Counted from the whole stretch's first letter, positions 21,408 through 45,815 are shown. The stretch: 62,751 bases of DNA, filler included, from Rhabdomonas costata (GCA_019059605.1; 47 parts of 47 records of this genome joined end to end with filler, not necessarily neighbours in it); one strand, 5' to 3'. Notes: generated by a model from the sequence alone, not told the origin. Program-made: numbers and translations.

Positions 21408-22186
21408 GGTTGGTGGTGACCAGGGTCCAAGCCGCGCCGTCGGAGCTCTTCCAGATGTCCTTCATGGGGCTCAAAGAGGGGTTGCTGAAGCCGGCAATCA
21501 CGAGAAGCTGGCCGTTGAAGGTCAGGGAGCAGTGCCCCCCGCGGGCGGGGAACGCGGACGAGGAGGGTACCACGGTCCACCCGGAGAGAGCTGTCGCGAG
21601 GAGAGTGAAGGACAATGGTTCGCGAGCCAAAAGCAGTAAACAGGCAAAGAGGAAGAGCAATGACTGACCAGAGGGAACTGGCATGCAGCGGATCAAGCCT
21701 CAACGCAGCGGAGGAAAGTGCTGATCAGCCGCCATGACCAGGCCGCGGTGGGAAAAATAAAGGGTCAAAAAATGAAAAACGTACTGAGATTACCCTTTTT
21801 CACCCTGCCCGCTTCGTTGCATCGACGTTTCCCTCAAATTCTCACGTTTAATGTGAAGCGGGCCATATAAAAAGATATAAAAAGGGGGGGCTGGGAAGAG
21901 GCCACACCGTAGGAGCCCGTGGAGTAGATACTGTTGGCCCATGTCCCGCCGCATGTCTGGGTCTGATCCATGTTGCAGAGGGCGTTGCAGGAGGATGAGG
22001 GGAGGGCCCCGTAGCCTCCATAGCTGTCACCGCAGAAGCACTGGCTGTAATACTGGACCCCAGCGTAGGAGTACCCCAGGGCGAAGCACATGTTGATGCA
22101 CTTCTGTGGGGTGGCCGTGTTCCAGTCCGCAGCGTATGGAAGGTCCCGGGTACTGGAGTCCGCAAAACACCCGATGTACTTCGGGC
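21408..22186 (-). CDS. Extracellular WSC-domain plus Kelch-repeat protein; exons 22186-21908 and 21590-contig end
   Basis: WSC domain: YIGCFADSSTRDLP...TPQKCINMC...YAGVQYYSQCFCG...CNALC...CGGTWANSIY. A phase-1 splice (TAC G|CT CTC) leads into GWTVVPSSSAFPARGGHCSLTFNGQLLVIAG...KDIWKSSDGAAW. Confidence 0.88.
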
Positions 22187-24081
22187 CTGCCCCCCCACAC
22201 ACACACACAATAAAAAACCTCACACGCTGAGCGCCTGTTACGTTTCTCAGCCTCGGTTCGAAGCGAAAAGGTCCTAACCGGAATCCATGGAACGTGATGT
22301 CAGTCACCACCTAGCTCCTGCCAAACAACAACAACATTACAAATCCTTTACATGTGTAGTGCACCCTTTCGTCCCTAGCCCCAAACGAAGTACCAGTACC
22401 ATCTCATTCCTCAACTCATCCAATGAACACGCATCCTTATTTTCGTACTATACCCTCAACTTGGAAGAGAAGCAAAGTGGATAAGCATCTTACCAACTTG
22501 ACAGCGTTCTCTGGGCGCTTGCCGTGCACGGCTCACAAGCATTGCAGATTTTCTCGGGAGGCGAAAAGAAGTTGAATCACGTCTGTCTCTTCCTCTGAAA
22601 TGTCCTCTGAAACAGGCTCTCAGCTATCACCACAAAGCATCCAGNNNNNNNNNNNNNNNNNNNNNNNNNNNNNNNNNNNNNNNNNNNNTTAATTAATTAA
22701 NNNNNNNNNNNNNNNNNNNNNNNNNNNNNNNNNNNNNNNNNNNNGTTGTTGGGTTCCTCCATCGTCATTCGAATGTTCGAATGCAAATCCGTCAGTGTGC
22801 AGGTGCGATGTTGTGTGCACTTCAGCCGCATGAGGGATGTCTTGTCCGCGGCATTATCAAGTGAGTGTAATTTCACGGCACGTTTCACGTGGACCATTAT
22901 TTACCCGCAATTTAGGCATGGGCTGGTGAACTTACTATAGCCCATAGTGGTCGAATACACCTACAAGAACGGAAGGGAATGAGTATATCACTTGGGCTCT
23001 TGCATCCTTCATGAATATTCTCGCATACTCTCACTCATCAAAGTTGATCGCAAGACACACTTTTTGATTTTCTGTTTTGGTATTGATGAAATTCTTCCAA
23101 ATTCTAATCGAAATTACTGACTCTCCCCGAATCGTGTGCACTCTCATGGCAGGATCCCACACGGTTCCGGTTGGAGATCCTGTTTTCACCGGGCGCGCGG
23201 ACTCCCAGCACGGCTCCTGGAGGGAAGTTCGGGTCCATTCAGGGCCACGTCTGCCCCGTTCAAGCTGGTAATGTCACAGTGCTGTGCATTGGCGGGGAAA
23301 ATGGACTTCTGTTTAGTATTTCATCTTTCAGCTACCTTTTCTAGTTTTAATCTTTCCCCATTCTTTCTTTTTCGGATAGGAACTTAAGGTTTGTTTGGAT
23401 GCGCACGGCCCCATTGTAGACTGCATTAGCGTCAAAAAAAGAAAACTACAGGGTGTCTGTGCACAGCTGAACTTTATGATCTCTGTAAAGAGTCTGGTGT
23501 ACGGCTTAGAAGGTCCCCAACACCACCTAACACCTCGGTCTTCCGCAATCCTACACAGCCACCACTCCAATACCGTCTTTCGATTCCGAGCCTTGCATTG
23601 TGATGGCTTCCTTTCAAAAGAGACCCCCCCCAACTCACCATAGGGGTGCGGATGAACAGCGGTGATTCCATTCTCACTCTGGACCATGTCTACGAGGCCC
23701 TCGCTCCGTTCGCCTTCCAGCACCACAGCAGCGTGGCCAGCTCTGTGGCGCCCTCGCAGGCAGCCCCCTCCATCCCGGCCCCAGGGGTGCCCGTCACCCC
23801 GCCTGCCAGGGTGATGCACTCTCGGCGCGCCAGCGCAGGCAACAGCAGCTGCCTCACCAAGTCATAGTTGCGGACCCTTGGAGTTGTACCAATGTGTGCA
23901 GGGGGGCTAGCGTCTCATAACAGAGTCTGGCAAACCGATTCTGTTTCCTTTGGAGACTTCCTGGTTGCAGAGCGAACCGAANNNNNNNNNNNNNNNNNNN
24001 NNNNNNNNNNNNNNNNNNNNNNNNNTTAATTAATTAANNNNNNNNNNNNNNNNNNNNNNNNNNNNNNNNNNNNNNNNNNNN

Positions 24082-31295: not shown

Positions 31296-33547
31296 CTGGG
31301 ATATCAAAGAAAGTCATCGAATCATCATGCATATCAAAGCACTACACCTAGATCCGCAGCGCAGAGCAAGAAAACAAAGGGGTCGGTTGAATCAAACGCC
31401 GATTGAAACGGAACACGGGGTACCATTCCACTCCATTTCAAGTCAAACGGAGCCGGCTTCTACCATTGTGCTTGGTTCCAGCAAAAAGGAATACAGGGAC
31501 CACTGCAGAGACCGCGGCAGTTGTCCTGTCCTTACATCCTTCCTGGAGACGTTCCCTCCGGATAGCATATTCTCGGTGGCATTTAACGGTCACGTCACCT
31601 GCCCTGCCTGGTCCGACTTGGGTGGTGGGACTGTGTGCCTCAGAGGAAGGTACCGTCCGCCTTGGCACTGAAGAAAGGAATCCGTCCCGCTCGCCCATCC
31701 GTTGACGTGTTGATAAGGCCAACCCCTGACAGCGTTTTTACAGCACACTGAAAAATTTTACAGTGTGTGTGGTGGTGGTGGTGGTGTGGAATCCAATGAA
31801 GAACTCACAGCAAAACAACCCTTACAATCAATGGGAAACGTGGCACCGCCACCTATTGATAACATGAATTTTACTGTGCAGCAATGAGCCATCAGTAGTT
31901 CAGGAGTTCAGAATCACTGTTGGTGAGGAAAGGCATTCCATGAGAACGCAACCTGCTTGCTGGGCGGATACCTACCACATGAGCATACATCATTTCCGAA
32001 CCNNNNNNNNNNNNNNNNNNNNNNNNNNNNNNNNNNNNNNNNNNNNTTAATTAATTAANNNNNNNNNNNNNNNNNNNNNNNNNNNNNNNNNNNNNNNNNN
32101 NNTGTTGGTGGGCCTTTCGGGGCGGGCTTGCGGTACAGCTCCCGGGACCAGACCGGCCCTCCTCCGCAGTCAGCTTCAAGAGTGACAGCCATCATGCAAT
32201 CAAGCGCAAATCAAAGATTTTCTTTCTTTGCACTGACGATTTCCATCTACTACCATTCTACTACCACAACACAACAAATGCGCACATTCCTTGCGCTTTT
32301 GGCACAGGCTGCTTTCTCTCTCTCGTTGGAGGTTCCATCCAGTATATACTGCACTTCTCCGAGCAAACCACGACCCTTACCCACTGCGTTCCGATTCCAG
32401 CTCACGCCGCAACTGCCCAACCTTCCTACGTCACCTGCCTCCCAGAAACATTAACATTCTCTCACCCATGAACATTAACATCACTGCGCTGAAGGAGAAT
32501 CGCAGAGTAAGGATCATCAAGAGTGGGGTGAAGGGGTTAAGGTATCATTGGTACACATGCCCGTAATATGAACACACCTCAATAGCGGGGCCAATGAGTG
32601 CTTCAGGCATTCGGAGCCAAGTCAGCAGTAAAAAAGAAAAAGGGCGAGGGCACAAACAAACAGACACTACTATGGATGAAGGGGTGGGGGTGCTGCAGAG
32701 AGGTCGAAAACCCGCAACACCCACGCACACACACAAACAAACACAAACAGCCCAGCGCGGCAAAACGCAACCCCGTGGGCAAGTTTCGAGCTGCACACAG
32801 CTCTTGTCCTTTTTTGTGGCGGTGGGGGGGAGGGGGTTGCTGCTGCTCTTGCCAGTGTTAATTTGGAAATGCAATGCTTTCCCTTCATACACTTCGCACG
32901 TATCATGGCGTACGTAAACCAGTCATCTGCCAGGTAGATCAAAGGGTGTGCGTTCCCACAAAAAAAAACTGTCACTACTTTTGAAACCCCCAAAAGCTGG
33001 TTTTGATTGCCTGTCGGGGCGGTATGGGATTCCGGTCCATCCCTGGAGCATGGAAAAGCACGTGCGATGCAGAGGTGACCGTATAGCTCAAGGAGGTAAA
33101 ATTAATGTAATTTGCCCGCCACTGGTATGCCTGTGACTTATTGCTGGAAATCCCAAACCAGCCAAAAGCTGGTGATGTCGGACGATCATTAGCAAGGATG
33201 TGACCCAATCCACCACGATGGTCACCCCAAAGCAGCGGACTTTCAGGAAGAAGACTTTCATAACAGAGGATCCGACAGGTCCCAAGAAGGTGCACTGCAC
33301 CCAGCCAAGAAAGGGGAACCCCACTCTCTCCAGCAGAGNNNNNNNNNNNNNNNNNNNNNNNNNNNNNNNNNNNNNNNNNNNNTTAATTAATTAANNNNNN
33401 NNNNNNNNNNNNNNNNNNNNNNNNNNNNNNNNNNNNNNGTGTTGTTGGTGTTGGTTGCCGTTGATTGTGCTACGAGAGTGCTGCGCGGCTGCAAAGAACG
33501 ATGGTGAGCAGCGGCTGGAAAAGAGCAGAACAGAAAAGGGGGCTCAC

Positions 33548-34238
33548 TGCCAAAATCTGTGATCTTCACCACCACCCCGCTCCTATCCACCAGCACATTG
33601 GCGGGCTTGAGGTCGTGGTGGATCAGTTTCACTGCAAAAAAGTCGATCGCCAACTGGGGACAGTGATGAGTGAAGGCAAATAGCGGTACAACGTCGCAAA
33701 GGGGAGAGGATGATGAGCAGTGGTTATATCCACTGGCGGAGCACATCACGGAGGTTGGGGTGATATGGATTTTGCAGACACTTAGTTATCATCATCCTTG
33801 AGCAAATTACACTTCACCTCACACCCCACAACTCCACCAAAATGGCTGAAACACCCTAAAGTGGTAAGGCCAGGTTTGTTGTTTTAATCGCTTGAAACAG
33901 GGCATCAGTTGGAGGAATGTGTAATGCGAAAGCGGGAAACGAAACCTCAACCGCTGAAGAAAACTGCTCAACCCCCACCCCCATCCGCCGCAGTGGGCGG
34001 ATGGGACCCAGACAGCACACAAACCTTCATCGTGGAGGAACTTGAGTCCCTCCAAAATCTGCCTGAGGTAGTTGCGGCAGCGGCCAGTTTGCACTTTCCC
34101 CGCACTCTTCAGGATGTCCAACAGGGATTGATCCATGCGCTCCATCACAATTAGCAGACGCTCCTGATAGTCAAGGATGTCCAGCAGCTTCACGACGTTG
34201 GGGTGGTTGTGCTTCTCCAAGCTCTTGAGAATCCTTGC
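33548..34238 (-). CDS. Ser/Thr protein kinase, subdomains III-VII; exons 34238-34025 and 33631-33548
   Basis: HPNVVKLLDI...LLIVMERMDQSL...YLRQILEGLKFLHDE|VKLIHHDLKPANVLV...VKITDFG. Phase-1 join. Confidence 0.93.
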
Positions 34239-35275
34239 CTTTGGGCAACACGGGTTTGGAAAAGCAGTCTCAAAAAAAGTCTCAAAAATCATCGAATCAA
34301 ATCGCTAGCGCAAAGCCGACCACCCATCACAAATCACGCCTACAGCATGTCGAAAAAAAAATACGGGGCAGCCGAATAAATACAGCCATGTTCAGGACAA
34401 ATTCAAAGACCCATTTGGCAAACGGATGTGGTGCGAGCCGGATGCTGGGCAAGGAAGGGGAGGGAGGGGAGGCGAGGCATACGAAGAATGAAGACATCAG
34501 GACGGCGGGATCTTTGGAACAACTTTGCACTTTGCACCACCGACAAAAACACACTTTGTGCACCTTCCCAGTCCGGATATCCTCCCGCACCCCCCCCCCA
34601 TAAGTAATGTGGTGCGCAGCCAGGTGGGAATATACGTACCCAAAGGCAAGGCATACTTTAACAAGCACACAAACCNNNNNNNNNNNNNNNNNNNNNNNNN
34701 NNNNNNNNNNNNNNNNNNNTTAATTAATTAANNNNNNNNNNNNNNNNNNNNNNNNNNNNNNNNNNNNNNNNNNNNGTTTGTTGTTCTCGTTGGAAAACGA
34801 ACGAAGTGAGAAATGCCCGCGTGTGCAATGGTTTTTAGTATTCACCAGAAAAGGTGGGCTGCTACGCGACACGGAAAATAAAATAGAAAACTCTTATATG
34901 AATACGTTGGATACGTTATGGATACGTTTCGTAACGGGACCTCTGAGCGCTGGCGCCGGGCCCGAGCTCCTTCACTTGTGCTGTTGGAATACGGGAGCTG
35001 AGAGCAAACAGCATTTTTTTTTGCCCTTCTGATATGCTTCTGTTGTGTAGGTGTGCAAGGTTTATTTAAGTGGAGTGGAAGCTGTGTGTGTCATTGCGTG
35101 TGCCTGTTTCACTCTGTGCCTGCACAGTTTTTATTTTTCTCCGTTGCAGGGTCGCGAAAAATGCTCATAGAAGTAAGAGAGCCGACCTGATTCGGGGTAC
35201 GATATGTCGTGAATCAAAGAGTTCGATGACGGCCTCGTTATGAGGGTTGCTGCGCGCTCTCATTCCTCCCGGTAG

Positions 35276-35720: not shown

Positions 35721-36433
35721 CATGGAGTATGATCCAAGGGCTGGAGGGAAGAGGGAAGAATGCGGTTGCTTGTCCCCCGCTTGTATGGATTCCTGCGTAT
35801 CTATGGATCATGCGTATGTTGTGGCCCGCCCATTTCGCCAAAAAACAATTTCGCGGCTCCCCGTTTCCTCGTACTTCTGTGTTTTAGGTCTCAGTACTTA
35901 TCGACGGGCCATTTGGTAAAGATAAATGAAATCAGGTTGCTACACTCGCGTGAGACTTCCCCCACCTTCCCCTTCTGACTCATCTACGAGATTTTGAGGT
36001 TGAACCACCACCNNNNNNNNNNNNNNNNNNNNNNNNNNNNNNNNNNNNNNNNNNNNTTAATTAATTAANNNNNNNNNNNNNNNNNNNNNNNNNNNNNNNN
36101 NNNNNNNNNNNNAGGAACCCTGTTCTTCAATATTTTCCCCTGCATGTTGTTTCCTCTTGCTGTCTGCCTGTCCCCTGTTATGCCCGACGTCCAAGAACGA
36201 ATGCCCATGCAAGCGTGCATTTAAGCGAACGATCCGAACGAAAATCCGTTCCTATTGGCCATCCTTTTTCCGGGGAGTTGTGCCATCTTCTCCTTGCCAT
36301 TCACAATTGTAAATTAAAATGGCATAACTTTCGCAGTGACCCTTTTTCTAGGGGAAACGGGCAAGGCTTCCTAACCCCCTGCGAGAAGAAATATCTTGTC
36401 CTATGGGACACAGCCAAGGCTTCCTAACTCCCT

Positions 36434-36514
<81 letters not shown>
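36434..36514 (+). repeat. Compound microsatellite (GC)n(GA)n(GT)n
   Basis: Directly visible. Lies between the transposase stop codon and the subterminal repeats. Confidence 0.95.
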
Positions 36515-36516
<2 letters not shown>

Positions 36517-36531
36517 AAATAAAAGCACACA

Positions 36532-37354
36532 TCACTGGAAATGCCCGTCACGAATGTGCCCCATCAAAGTGAGGAAAGGGCCATTTCCACACAAGTTGGC
36601 TCTCCACTGGAATTCCTTTACATATCCAGGCATTGTCCGTCAGGAACACCCCCCATCTCCCTGATCCAGTTCTTCAGTCTGCCCCAGGTTCAATCAATTC
36701 CATTGGTTGAAATGGTCCGCTGCTGTCCACTAACAACATCCTTAGGAGAGAAGATCCCTTTATTGTGGTCCACTGTGCGTAGATCAAGCCATGAGCATCA
36801 GCAGGCTTTTTGTAGGCACGAGCATCATCCGCGGAAAAGAGAGAGCCTGCAGCTACGTGGTCGAACAACTCCGCAGCTTCAGCAGCGTTTGGAGGTCCAA
36901 ATCTTCGCTCATCCGTCTCAGGTTGCAACTTTTCATACAGCTTAAGCTCCACACGTCATGTTCCTCTCTCAAATACGCCATTGACGCGGTTGTCATGCCC
37001 GTGGATCCCCTTTTTCTTTCTGCCCAACCCGGTCTCGACAGCGTCAACCCCCATGTCCAGACCGTTCACCACCTCGCCCCAAGAAGACTCGTAGTTCATA
37101 ACACATACGCGAAAGCGAATACTCCAATCCGCCACGGTGGCATCCCCGTCGCCCAGCATGGGCGCGAAGCCCAGCACAGTCATGAGCCCACCAGTAGGCC
37201 AAGAGGACGAACTGCTTCAAAAAAAGCTTGGAGCCGTCCATAAGGCTTTCCAAAACCGCATAGACTCTGGTACGGCACTGCTGGTCAGTACACACCAGAC
37301 CCGCCTTGCCACTATACACCCTTGGCTTAATGTCAGAGCCCTTTGAGCACTTAG
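36532..37354 (-). pseudogene. ISXO2-like (DDE_Tnp_IS1595) transposase pseudogene
   Basis: Read across frameshifts and stops: GLVCTDQQC...LAYWWAH...VADWSIRFR...VET.LGRKKKGIHGH..GVFERGT...GSLFSADDARAY...VDHNKGIF...ISTNGID*TWGRLK...GYVKEFQWRAN...PFLTLMGHIRDGHFQ*. Confidence 0.9.
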
Positions 37355-44137: not shown

Positions 44138-44965
44138 TTTGTTTTAGCATCTCTATGATTACTAGAATCCTCAAATCATGTCTCTCAACTGGAGCAGTAG
44201 CATACAACATAAAAATTATGACGTCCGACAAACTAGCCTCTGCCAAAGAAAAACATAAAAACAGCTGATCTACATCCCATCAGTATGTGCTTTTTCTACG
44301 TAGATCAGCAGTTTCGAAGATGAAGAATAGTTCTGCCTTCGCTTCAGAAACCCCTGGACTGCATTTCTGATTGCTACGGCAATAGGACTAATCTATAGCC
44401 TCTTGCTTCCAGCAAGAGTGTAGATAAAGGTGGATTTTCCGGTGTTAGGAAGGCCGAGAATAGCGGTAACAACAGATCCATTTCTCTTGACATATGGTAC
44501 CTATTGAAGAGAAAAGTCCAAAATGGCTGATTCTACATCAGCGCTCGATAACAGCCATAGATGGCGCACTTATTCCAAGGCTATAATAATCACCAAAAAT
44601 GTGGGTATTTATGGAACTCTTGTTTATCGAAAATATTGACGGCTTGCGTAGTGTTCTGAGGAATTACACTGTGCTGAAGTCAGACCAACAACGCCATTCA
44701 TTTTCGTCACCATATACCGTAAATCGTGAAATATTTTACTTCACACTCCCGCAGCGCCTCCAGGAGCTGTTTGGTAACGTCCATATGACCGGTGATGCCA
44801 CGATATATCAACTGCTAACAACAATAACCTTCTAGTTACAATTGCGAGTCGTGCAAGAAACTTGCGACGCTTTTTTCATCAGCTTTTCTTTGACGAAGGT
44901 GTTTAAGAAGCTATATTTCCAACATGTGTATGTTGTGTACGCCCTGCAAGTACAATTACAGGCAT
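44138..44965 (-). pseudogene. der: Bacterial-type ribosome biogenesis GTPase Der (EngA) pseudogene
   Basis: Two tandem G domains can be pieced together across frames. GD1: MPVIVLAGR..HVG/SFLNTFV..TTRN..QLLEALRECEV..GLT..LRKPSIFSINK..DYYSLG. GD2: VTAILGLPNTGKSTFIYTLAGSKRL*ISPIA..RNAV/FFIFETADLRRKS..SDVIIFMLYATAPVERHDLRIL. No introns, several stops and frameshifts. Confidence 0.82.
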
Positions 44966-45002
44966 ATTAGTTAAAATTAGAGTACTTCCCAAATTGAAAC
45001 AG

Positions 45003-45073
45003 TGATAACGCCAGAGATCAAACCTGGGAAACATTGATTAAGAGCCAAGTGCTTTACCGCTGAGAACGTTACA
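45003..45073 (-). tRNA. Degenerate tRNA-Lys (anticodon CTT), probably a pseudogene
   Basis: Minus strand TGTAACG-TTCTCAGCGGTAAAGC-ACTTGG-CT-CTT-AA-TCAA-TGTTTC-CCAGG-TTTGATC-TCTGG-CGTTATC-A. The acceptor, D, anticodon and T arms are recognisable, but the T-loop and D-stem are mutated. Confidence 0.75.
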
Positions 45074-45815
45074 ACGAACGCTGTAGCATGTGCATGCGGT
45101 AGTCAAATTAATAGCATAACCACTCATGGAAATAATCTGGTGCCTGGATGGAGAGCCAGGTTTCTCGAGAAACTGTTAAAAACTCACGAAAGCAATATCA
45201 AGCCAGCAGCATTTTATAAGGTTCCTAAGCCCATCTACATATACATCTACTCTCAGGAAATTGGATGTATATGAGCACGGTCCACCTACTTTTCCATGGC
45301 GCTAACGTCACCTTTTAAAACGATAAACAATGAATAAGTGTGCAAGAGTCATCACAGAAATATCCAAAACAACCNNNNNNNNNNNNNNNNNNNNNNNNNN
45401 NNNNNNNNNNNNNNNNNNTTAATTAATTAANNNNNNNNNNNNNNNNNNNNNNNNNNNNNNNNNNNNNNNNNNNNTTTTTGTGTGTTCAATGAATCTTCAT
45501 CTCTTCATTCAATATTACTTGAAGCTTTATCGTGACGGTCCTTGTGCTAGTGTTGTTACGAAGAGCTGTCCCTTGGCTCAAAGAACCATTTTCTCCTTTC
45601 ATGCCATCTTCAGCGCTGCCGGGAGTCCGAAATGCTTGTCACATTCATGGCTGTGCAAAGTGAAAAGTGACGGCACTGTACAGTAACATTAATCAGATGA
45701 ATGGGCCAGTGAGGAACAGCCAAATGCAGCTGCTTGCAAAGCTGACTCTCCAGCTCCTTTCAGCAGTCTTCTGTTCCGGGGGCCTTTCTGATGTGTGCCT
45801 GTTGGAAGGGCGCAG

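Follow-up and report, generated by a model that had tools for sequence, protein, structure and literature searches.

Decayed tRNA-Lys and der genes on a single contig

The stretch of Rhabdomonas costata DNA analysed here (the window, 62,751 bases) is composed of 47 contigs, each 1233 to 1242 bp in length, that are linked by spacers of the form N44-TTAATTAATTAA-N44. One of these contigs, which corresponds exactly to positions 44138 to 45374 (1237 bp), carries on its minus strand what sequence comparison confirms as the relic of a bacterial-style tRNA-Lys gene, a spacer, and a gene for the GTPase Der (EngA) that runs from its start codon through both GTPase (G) domains. Der is a two-G-domain protein that aids the assembly of the large ribosomal subunit. 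The arrangement of the tRNA gene, the 37-nt spacer, and the start of der is that of a prokaryote-type chromosome, of which this contig is a dead piece.

The der relic begins with an ATG at positions 44965 to 44963 of the minus strand, located 37 nt past the tRNA relic, that opens the sequence MPVIVLAGR. This N-terminal portion (44883 to 44965, minus strand) carries the broken G1 element of the first G domain (GD1), in which a 3-4 codon insertion precedes the residues HVG and KYSFLN, read across one frameshift. Its first 27 codons score 27.4 against columns 1 to 25 of our panel profile, compared with 20.4±3.5 for shuffled sequences, and eight of 200 shuffles reach this score. Taken alone, the N-terminal match is weak, but it is collinear with the rest of the relic. 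The later part of GD1 (44562 to 44778, minus strand) corresponds to profile columns 71 to 140, includes an INKS sequence that derives from the NKxD motif as well as the sequence DYYSLGIS, and scores 36.9 against 22.2±3.4 for shuffles, none of which (0 of 200) reaches the observed value. The second G domain (GD2; 44163 to 44464, minus strand) aligns with columns 178 to 278, retains an intact P-loop with the sequence GLPNTGKST (44455 to 44429), and scores 106.8 against 20.1±2.8, again with no shuffle among 200 reaching the score. The gene leaves the contig at position 44138, which is near position 283 of the 432 in the profile, and the C-terminal KH-like domain lies past the contig end.

Several comparisons establish how specific these matches are. 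With a frameshift-aware local aligner written for this analysis, the best single Der protein, which comes from a Microscillaceae metagenome-assembled genome (L069), yields a score of 167 across Der residues 88 to 278, with 56 of 191 columns identical, three stops, and four frameshifts. When the same protein is aligned to the 93 other contig-strands of the window, the mean score is 36.7 (standard deviation 5.1) and the maximum is 58, while 60 shuffles of the target reach at most 48. The NCBIfam model for Der (TIGR03594) matches the contig in two frames that are collinear, covering profile positions 174-221 (E 1.4e-5, 24.3 bits) and 220-283 (E 1.2e-5, 24.6 bits), although neither piece reaches the curated cut-off of 306.7 bits. 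The only Pfam match in GD2 is to MMR_HSR1 (22.4 bits).

It had been considered in the preliminary description of this contig that the best match might prove to be a GTPase of the YlqF type. However, the YlqF family, like the Era, MnmE, and Obg families, matches the P-loop stretch only, whereas Der spans positions 174-283. GD2 by itself is not specific for Der, as Der from E. coli scores 90, MnmE 86, and Era 62 on the same aligner. Rather, the relic is assigned to Der because the TIGR03594 matches are collinear, because another G domain is located upstream of GD2, and because the reading frame proceeds from the start codon straight into a P-loop. Two tandem Era-like G domains in this order and a start that leads directly into the P-loop are the characteristic features of Der proteins.

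Despite this resemblance, the relic differs from a working der gene in many places. The best path through the gene encounters four stop codons, which are TAA (44666), TAG (44503), TAG (44395), and TGA (44282), as well as six frameshifts in 204 aligned codons, with one further frameshift in the N-terminal piece. The P-loop of GD1 is interrupted by the short insertion and its DTGG motif is lost, and the G3 element of GD2 reads ETAD instead of DTAG (44315 to 44304). Only the P-loop of GD2 is intact among the G motifs, and no open frame was found that carries G1, G3, and G4 together. An alternative genetic code was considered and rejected, because stops of all three kinds are present in the path along with six frameshifts and therefore no genetic code rescues the frame.

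The decayed tRNA-Lys-like gene is located at positions 45003 to 45073 on the same strand. It matches the Rfam tRNA model RF00005 over its full length (positions 1-71) and has a seven-nucleotide anticodon loop, CUCUUAA, with the anticodon CUU. The score of 21.4 bits is under the gathering score of 29, and the E value is 0.15 when all 4227 Rfam families are counted or approximately 3.5e-5 for the tRNA family alone. Damage to the cloverleaf includes four non-standard pairs, the loss of one base near position 9, and a T-loop (UUUGAUC) in which C56 is replaced, whereas six of the seven acceptor pairs are kept. ARAGORN called no tRNA anywhere in the window, this relic included.

In sequence, the tRNA relic most resembles a tRNA-Lys(UUU) gene from Cellulosilyticum, with which it shares 55-56 of 72 bases (score 28-29, compared with a shuffle maximum of 11). 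It is identical at 47 of 72 positions to each of two alphaproteobacterial tRNA-Lys(UUU) genes and at 31-43 of 72 to two from one Bacteroidota genome. This comparison involves a tiny panel of six bacterial tRNA-Lys(UUU) genes called by ARAGORN in 12 loci (range 31-56 of 72), and it permits no placement. The CUU anticodon may have been UUU originally. Neither the tRNA-Lys gene nor der is functional any longer.

The remaining portions of the contig are the 37-nt spacer that separates the tRNA relic from the der ATG (44966 to 45002, minus strand), which was read directly from the sequence, and 301 nt of DNA upstream of the tRNA relic (45074 to 45374, minus strand) in which no gene or RNA can be recognised. 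Six-frame translations of this upstream DNA, read through stops, match no NCBIfam or Pfam model, and its only RNA match is a sub-threshold one to snoZ43 (E 1.9).

Most elements of this locus had been anticipated. The preliminary description proposed a degenerate tRNA-Lys(CTT) about 37 nt upstream on the same strand, a der gene starting at MPVIVLAGR with no transit peptide, and two Der G domains decayed by stops and frameshifts. All of these hold: the Rfam match, its anticodon loop, and the spacer are as expected; the ATG at 44965 occupies the bacterial Der start and the tRNA relic leaves no room for a presequence; the frameshift-aware alignment and the separate profile scores of GD1 and GD2 exceed all of their respective controls; and the four stops, six to seven frameshifts, and substituted motifs document the decay.

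The position of the tRNA relic also bears on a different origin for the gene. Specifically, the relic might be a processed pseudogene derived from a nuclear host gene whose Der product is targeted to an organelle, and a tRNA-derived short interspersed nuclear element (SINE) might have landed just upstream by chance. The relic is intronless and dead, as expected for a processed pseudogene, and SINEs derived from tRNA-Lys occur in eukaryotes. However, the methionine coincides exactly with the start of bacterial Der and precedes the P-loop glycine by six codons, and the place that a transit peptide would occupy is taken by a tRNA relic that resembles bacterial tRNA-Lys at up to 56 of 72 bases. 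A second copy of the tRNA-like element is present in none of the 46 other contigs, which together amount to no more than about 57 kb of host sequence. We consider this origin very improbable.

Age and donor lineage of the der relic

The divergence of the relic indicates that it is very old. Compared with 83 Der proteins over 196 aligned columns, its identity ranges from 0.19 to 0.32 with a mean of 0.267, while shuffled residues give 0.064. Over the same columns, Der proteins retain identities of 0.34-0.43 across phyla, 0.47 within our sample of Alphaproteobacteria, and 0.56 within our sample of Bacteroidota. By a rough calculation, approximately 40-50% of the residues have been replaced since the loss of constraint, which corresponds to roughly 0.2-0.3 substitutions per site. 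In a phylogenetic tree the terminal branch of the relic measures 3.76 changes per column, compared with a median of 0.46. At the level of codon positions the der path retains a faint coding signal, with guanine-plus-cytosine (GC) contents of 0.456, 0.387, and 0.407 at the first, second, and third positions (GC1, GC2, and GC3). The GC3 value is equivalent to that of the non-coding DNA upstream (0.401).

No close relative was recovered from sequence collections. A phmmer search with the read-through frame against 1.84 billion representative proteins returned no hits at E<=1e-3, and two word-indexed protein searches returned 81 and 20 candidates, none of which reached E<=10. A blastn search of the contig against plasmids and phages likewise gave no match.

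These data permit evaluation of the possibility that the lesions are not real, either because the contig is an ordinary contaminant with sequencing or assembly errors or because the gene works by way of an unusual code, frameshifting, or RNA editing. Homopolymer errors can indeed make frameshifts. However, errors or recoding of this type would have to account for stops of all three kinds in one path, for the change from DTAG to ETAD, the loss of DTGG, and the interrupted P-loop of GD1, and for an identity to every Der examined that is under the level observed across phyla. Substitutions in invariant motifs and the lack of any match at the above threshold in 1.84 billion proteins show that assembly errors in an ordinary contaminant do not account for the contig, and we give explanations of this kind almost no weight.

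The preliminary description tentatively suggested an alphaproteobacterial donor on the basis of features in GD2. To evaluate the donor lineage, 106 Der proteins were scored on the same aligner, with Cyanobacteria, Chlamydiota, and eukaryotic organellar Der left out. Scores range from 75 to 167 for 27 proteins from mixed phyla, from 96 to 164 for 30 proteins from the phylum of the Microscillaceae genome (Bacteroidota), from 67 to 147 for 26 proteins from the class of a Methyloceanibacter genome (Alphaproteobacteria), and from 64 to 161 for 23 proteins from the order of a Wolbachia genome. These four ranges overlap fully. The mean number of identical residues among the 196 columns is 52.0 for 31 Alphaproteobacteria, 54.8 for 34 Bacteroidota, 47.3 for Gammaproteobacteria, 47.5 for Firmicutes, and 48.7 for all others. 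None of the columns diagnostic for Alphaproteobacteria (0 of 8), Bacteroidota (0 of 6), or Firmicutes (0 of 5) is matched by the relic. A few residues that are enriched in Alphaproteobacteria are present, including a proline at 44386 and a leucine at 44264, both of which are among those picked out in the preliminary description, and other residues are enriched in other groups.

Phylogenetic analysis yields a similar outcome. Neither of two trees places the relic anywhere with support, and the same is true of the per-sequence scores and the group profiles. Three constrained trees were compared with a free tree obtained by a quick search, and the gains in log-likelihood (lnL) are +19.68 when the relic is grouped with Alphaproteobacteria, +16.87 when Alphaproteobacteria alone are grouped, and +20.40 when the relic is grouped with Bacteroidota. 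The corresponding p values of the approximately unbiased (AU) test are 0.81, 0.76, and 0.87. All three constrained trees are better than the free tree, and therefore these p values state only that the constraints are not rejected. A difference of 0.7 lnL separates the alphaproteobacterial from the Bacteroidota placement of the relic, and neither is rejected. By these comparisons an alphaproteobacterial origin is neither supported nor rejected.

One alphaproteobacterial locus among those sampled (L191; G154:C4:337420-338418) has a Der match that is cut at profile positions 2-300 and includes one in-frame TGA. This der gene could be broken, or the TGA could be read as sense.

A compositionally foreign contig among eukaryotic contigs

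The contig had been described as foreign and visibly rich in A and T, and comparison with the 46 other contigs of the window substantiates this description. Its GC content of 0.407 is the lowest of all 47, with the others ranging from 0.45 to 0.568. The 46 other contigs exhibit a strong depletion of TpA (observed/expected ratio 0.55±0.08) and a mild depletion of CpG (0.75±0.09). The TpA ratio of the relic-bearing contig is 0.86, which is the highest of the 47 (z 3.85), while its CpG ratio of 0.82 is inside the host range. The contig also has the highest GpC and the lowest ApA and CpC ratios, and the k-mer comparison assigns it the greatest trinucleotide distance. As a whole (44138 to 45374, without regard to strand), it is a compositional outlier and is foreign in composition among eukaryotic contigs. 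Its GC content is uniform along its length (0.36-0.48), no host sequence is present on it, and no repeat common to this contig and any of the 46 others was found.

The eukaryotic character of the other contigs is evident from their domains and from an intron. A Pfam scan (cut-off E<=1e-3) covered 150 of the 151 stop-to-stop open reading frames (ORFs) of at least 100 amino acids in the window, of which seven yielded matches: Kelch, WWE, SET, WSC, two pieces of one protein kinase (Pkinase), and a weak match to DUF7731. The other 143 scanned ORFs had no Pfam match. The protein-kinase gene (33439 to 34400, minus strand) is divided by a GT-AG intron of about 390 nt that extends from about 34025 to 33633. 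The two contigs with the next-lowest GC contents were checked in six frames, and both are eukaryotic and not bacterial.

Some additional features of these contigs were observed. The kinase intron contains the sequence AGCCATTTTGG, which we take to be part of the dinoflagellate spliced leader, although its presence may be due to chance. The contigs at 2676-3913 and 36113-37354 have two short repeats in common, one of 66 nt at 82% identity and one of 82 nt at 74%. An exon encoding a WSC domain (21837 to 22310, minus strand) has best relatives that are 44-57% identical and come from fungi, bacteria, molluscs, and metagenomes. Judging from such matches, the host lineage seems to be thinly represented in the protein collection.

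A contig that stands alone, and that takes the most extreme value of all 47 in six measures of composition, could derive from another organism in the sample, being either nuclear DNA of a different eukaryote with an old bacterial insertion or a redundant, long-dead extra copy of this region in a bacterium. The construction of the window is compatible with such a source, as the 47 contigs are unrelated pieces of nearly equal length, sorted by length, and their adjacency carries no linkage information. However, positive evidence specific to this explanation is absent: neither plasmid nor phage DNA matches the contig, and no protein relative is near enough to name a source. An origin in another organism therefore appears improbable to us.

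Possible histories of the relic

The preliminary description offered two settings for the relic, a splitting or degenerating endosymbiont lineage and an old bacterial insertion decaying in the host nucleus, and the evidence is compatible with either. The history that we prefer, and to which we assign about an even chance, is that bacterial DNA was inserted long ago into the nuclear genome of a eukaryote. A nuclear home is favoured because the length of der has been kept despite deep decay, because the whole contig is dead, including two adjacent genes and 301 nt of upstream DNA, because the gene that was lost is an essential one, and because fossils of this type have been documented. Specifically, 828 nt of the relic correspond to approximately 283 Der columns, and there is no sign of deletional shrinkage. 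According to this proposal, the donor would have been a bacterium of moderately high AT content, which may once have been an intracellular associate, and a copy of the fragment would have entered the nuclear DNA of a eukaryote. Long neutral drift would then have followed, amounting to the divergence estimated above, and through it the fragment would have retained its length as well as some of its foreign base composition. At present it would be without function and would persist as a record of past bacterial contact.

Insertions with comparable lesions are described in a report on filarial nematodes (PMC2882956). In Wolbachia-free filariae, many homologs of Wolbachia genes contain frameshifts and stops, and two pseudogene fragments that were probed are 73-83% identical in nucleotide sequence to their Wolbachia homologs (PMC2882956). 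As with these fossil insertions, which exhibit frameshifts, premature stops, and truncations, the relic described here occurs in a eukaryotic assembly. However, the filarial fossils (PMC2882956) have a named donor and are younger, whereas the present relic has no detectable DNA relative, is 19-32% identical to Der at the protein level, and is linked to host DNA by inference only.

Several observations weigh against a nuclear insertion. The absence of host sequence and of host-shared repeats from the contig means that linkage to a eukaryotic chromosome is only inferred. The agreement between GC3 and the GC content of the non-coding DNA would be at least equally compatible with a separate genome that is at equilibrium near 40% GC. 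The same is true of the dinucleotide pattern, whose distance from that of the host, most pronounced for TpA, fits a separate genome no less readily than drift toward a GC content of about 50%. An identifiable donor lineage was not found among the 106 Der proteins or by the AU tests.

Furthermore, a tRNA-Lys gene adjoining der was found in no genome examined. It is present at none of 85 der loci inspected with 1.5-kb flanks. A pattern scan of genomes returned at least 120 loci, and ARAGORN found no tRNA-Lys among the matches listed, although these are mostly chance P-loops and the result says little. Stricter patterns gave no hits in metagenome contigs with the CUU anticodon and two chance hits with UUU, both of which involve single-G-domain genes and no tRNA. 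A pattern scan of viral contigs gave no hits. All of these pattern scans cover only gaps of 58-88 nt between the T-loop and the P-loop codons of der (equivalent to a tRNA-to-ATG spacer of approximately 22-52 nt).

Some of these observations would be explained if the contig belonged to the genome of an endosymbiont or organelle-like body that is alive but degenerating. In such a genome, der and tRNA-Lys would be pseudogenes whose functions are supplied from another genome, either that of the host or, as in Hodgkinia, that of a sister lineage. Consistent with this possibility are the outlying composition of the contig, its uniform GC content and lack of a host flank, the compact prokaryotic gene layout, and the convergence of GC3 and non-coding GC content at about 0.40, which is expected at equilibrium in a genome of its own. 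The relic also recalls the pseudogenes of Hodgkinia, in which an otherwise essential gene is lost within a prokaryote-style layout. However, bacterial genomes tend to delete dead DNA, and decay to 27% identity with the length preserved would be unusual for them. No live gene is present in all 1237 bp, and neither of the two contigs next lowest in GC content looks bacterial in six frames. Unlike the Hodgkinia case, nothing found here points to a companion genome, to further symbiont genes, or to a symbiont at all, and the depth of decay at full length would not be expected. We therefore regard a degenerating symbiont as unlikely, albeit with an appreciable chance of being correct.

A broader proposal encompasses both settings. 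The contig might be the trace of a bacterial partner that has no close sequenced relative, either as the fossil of an extinct endosymbiosis in host DNA or as part of a living symbiont in terminal decay that has lost der and is complemented from outside. This proposal is speculative, and we consider it improbable.

On present evidence the relic is known from one short, unlinked contig, and it should be treated as a lead rather than as a result. Decayed bacterial insertions of this kind are already known, and the contig would add a further example. If it resides in host chromosomes, it records an old bacterial transfer from a lineage that ordinary similarity searches miss, and profile-based, frameshift-aware scans would be able to find such fossils. 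If it resides instead in the genome of a symbiont, the loss of der would imply an unusual dependence on another genome.

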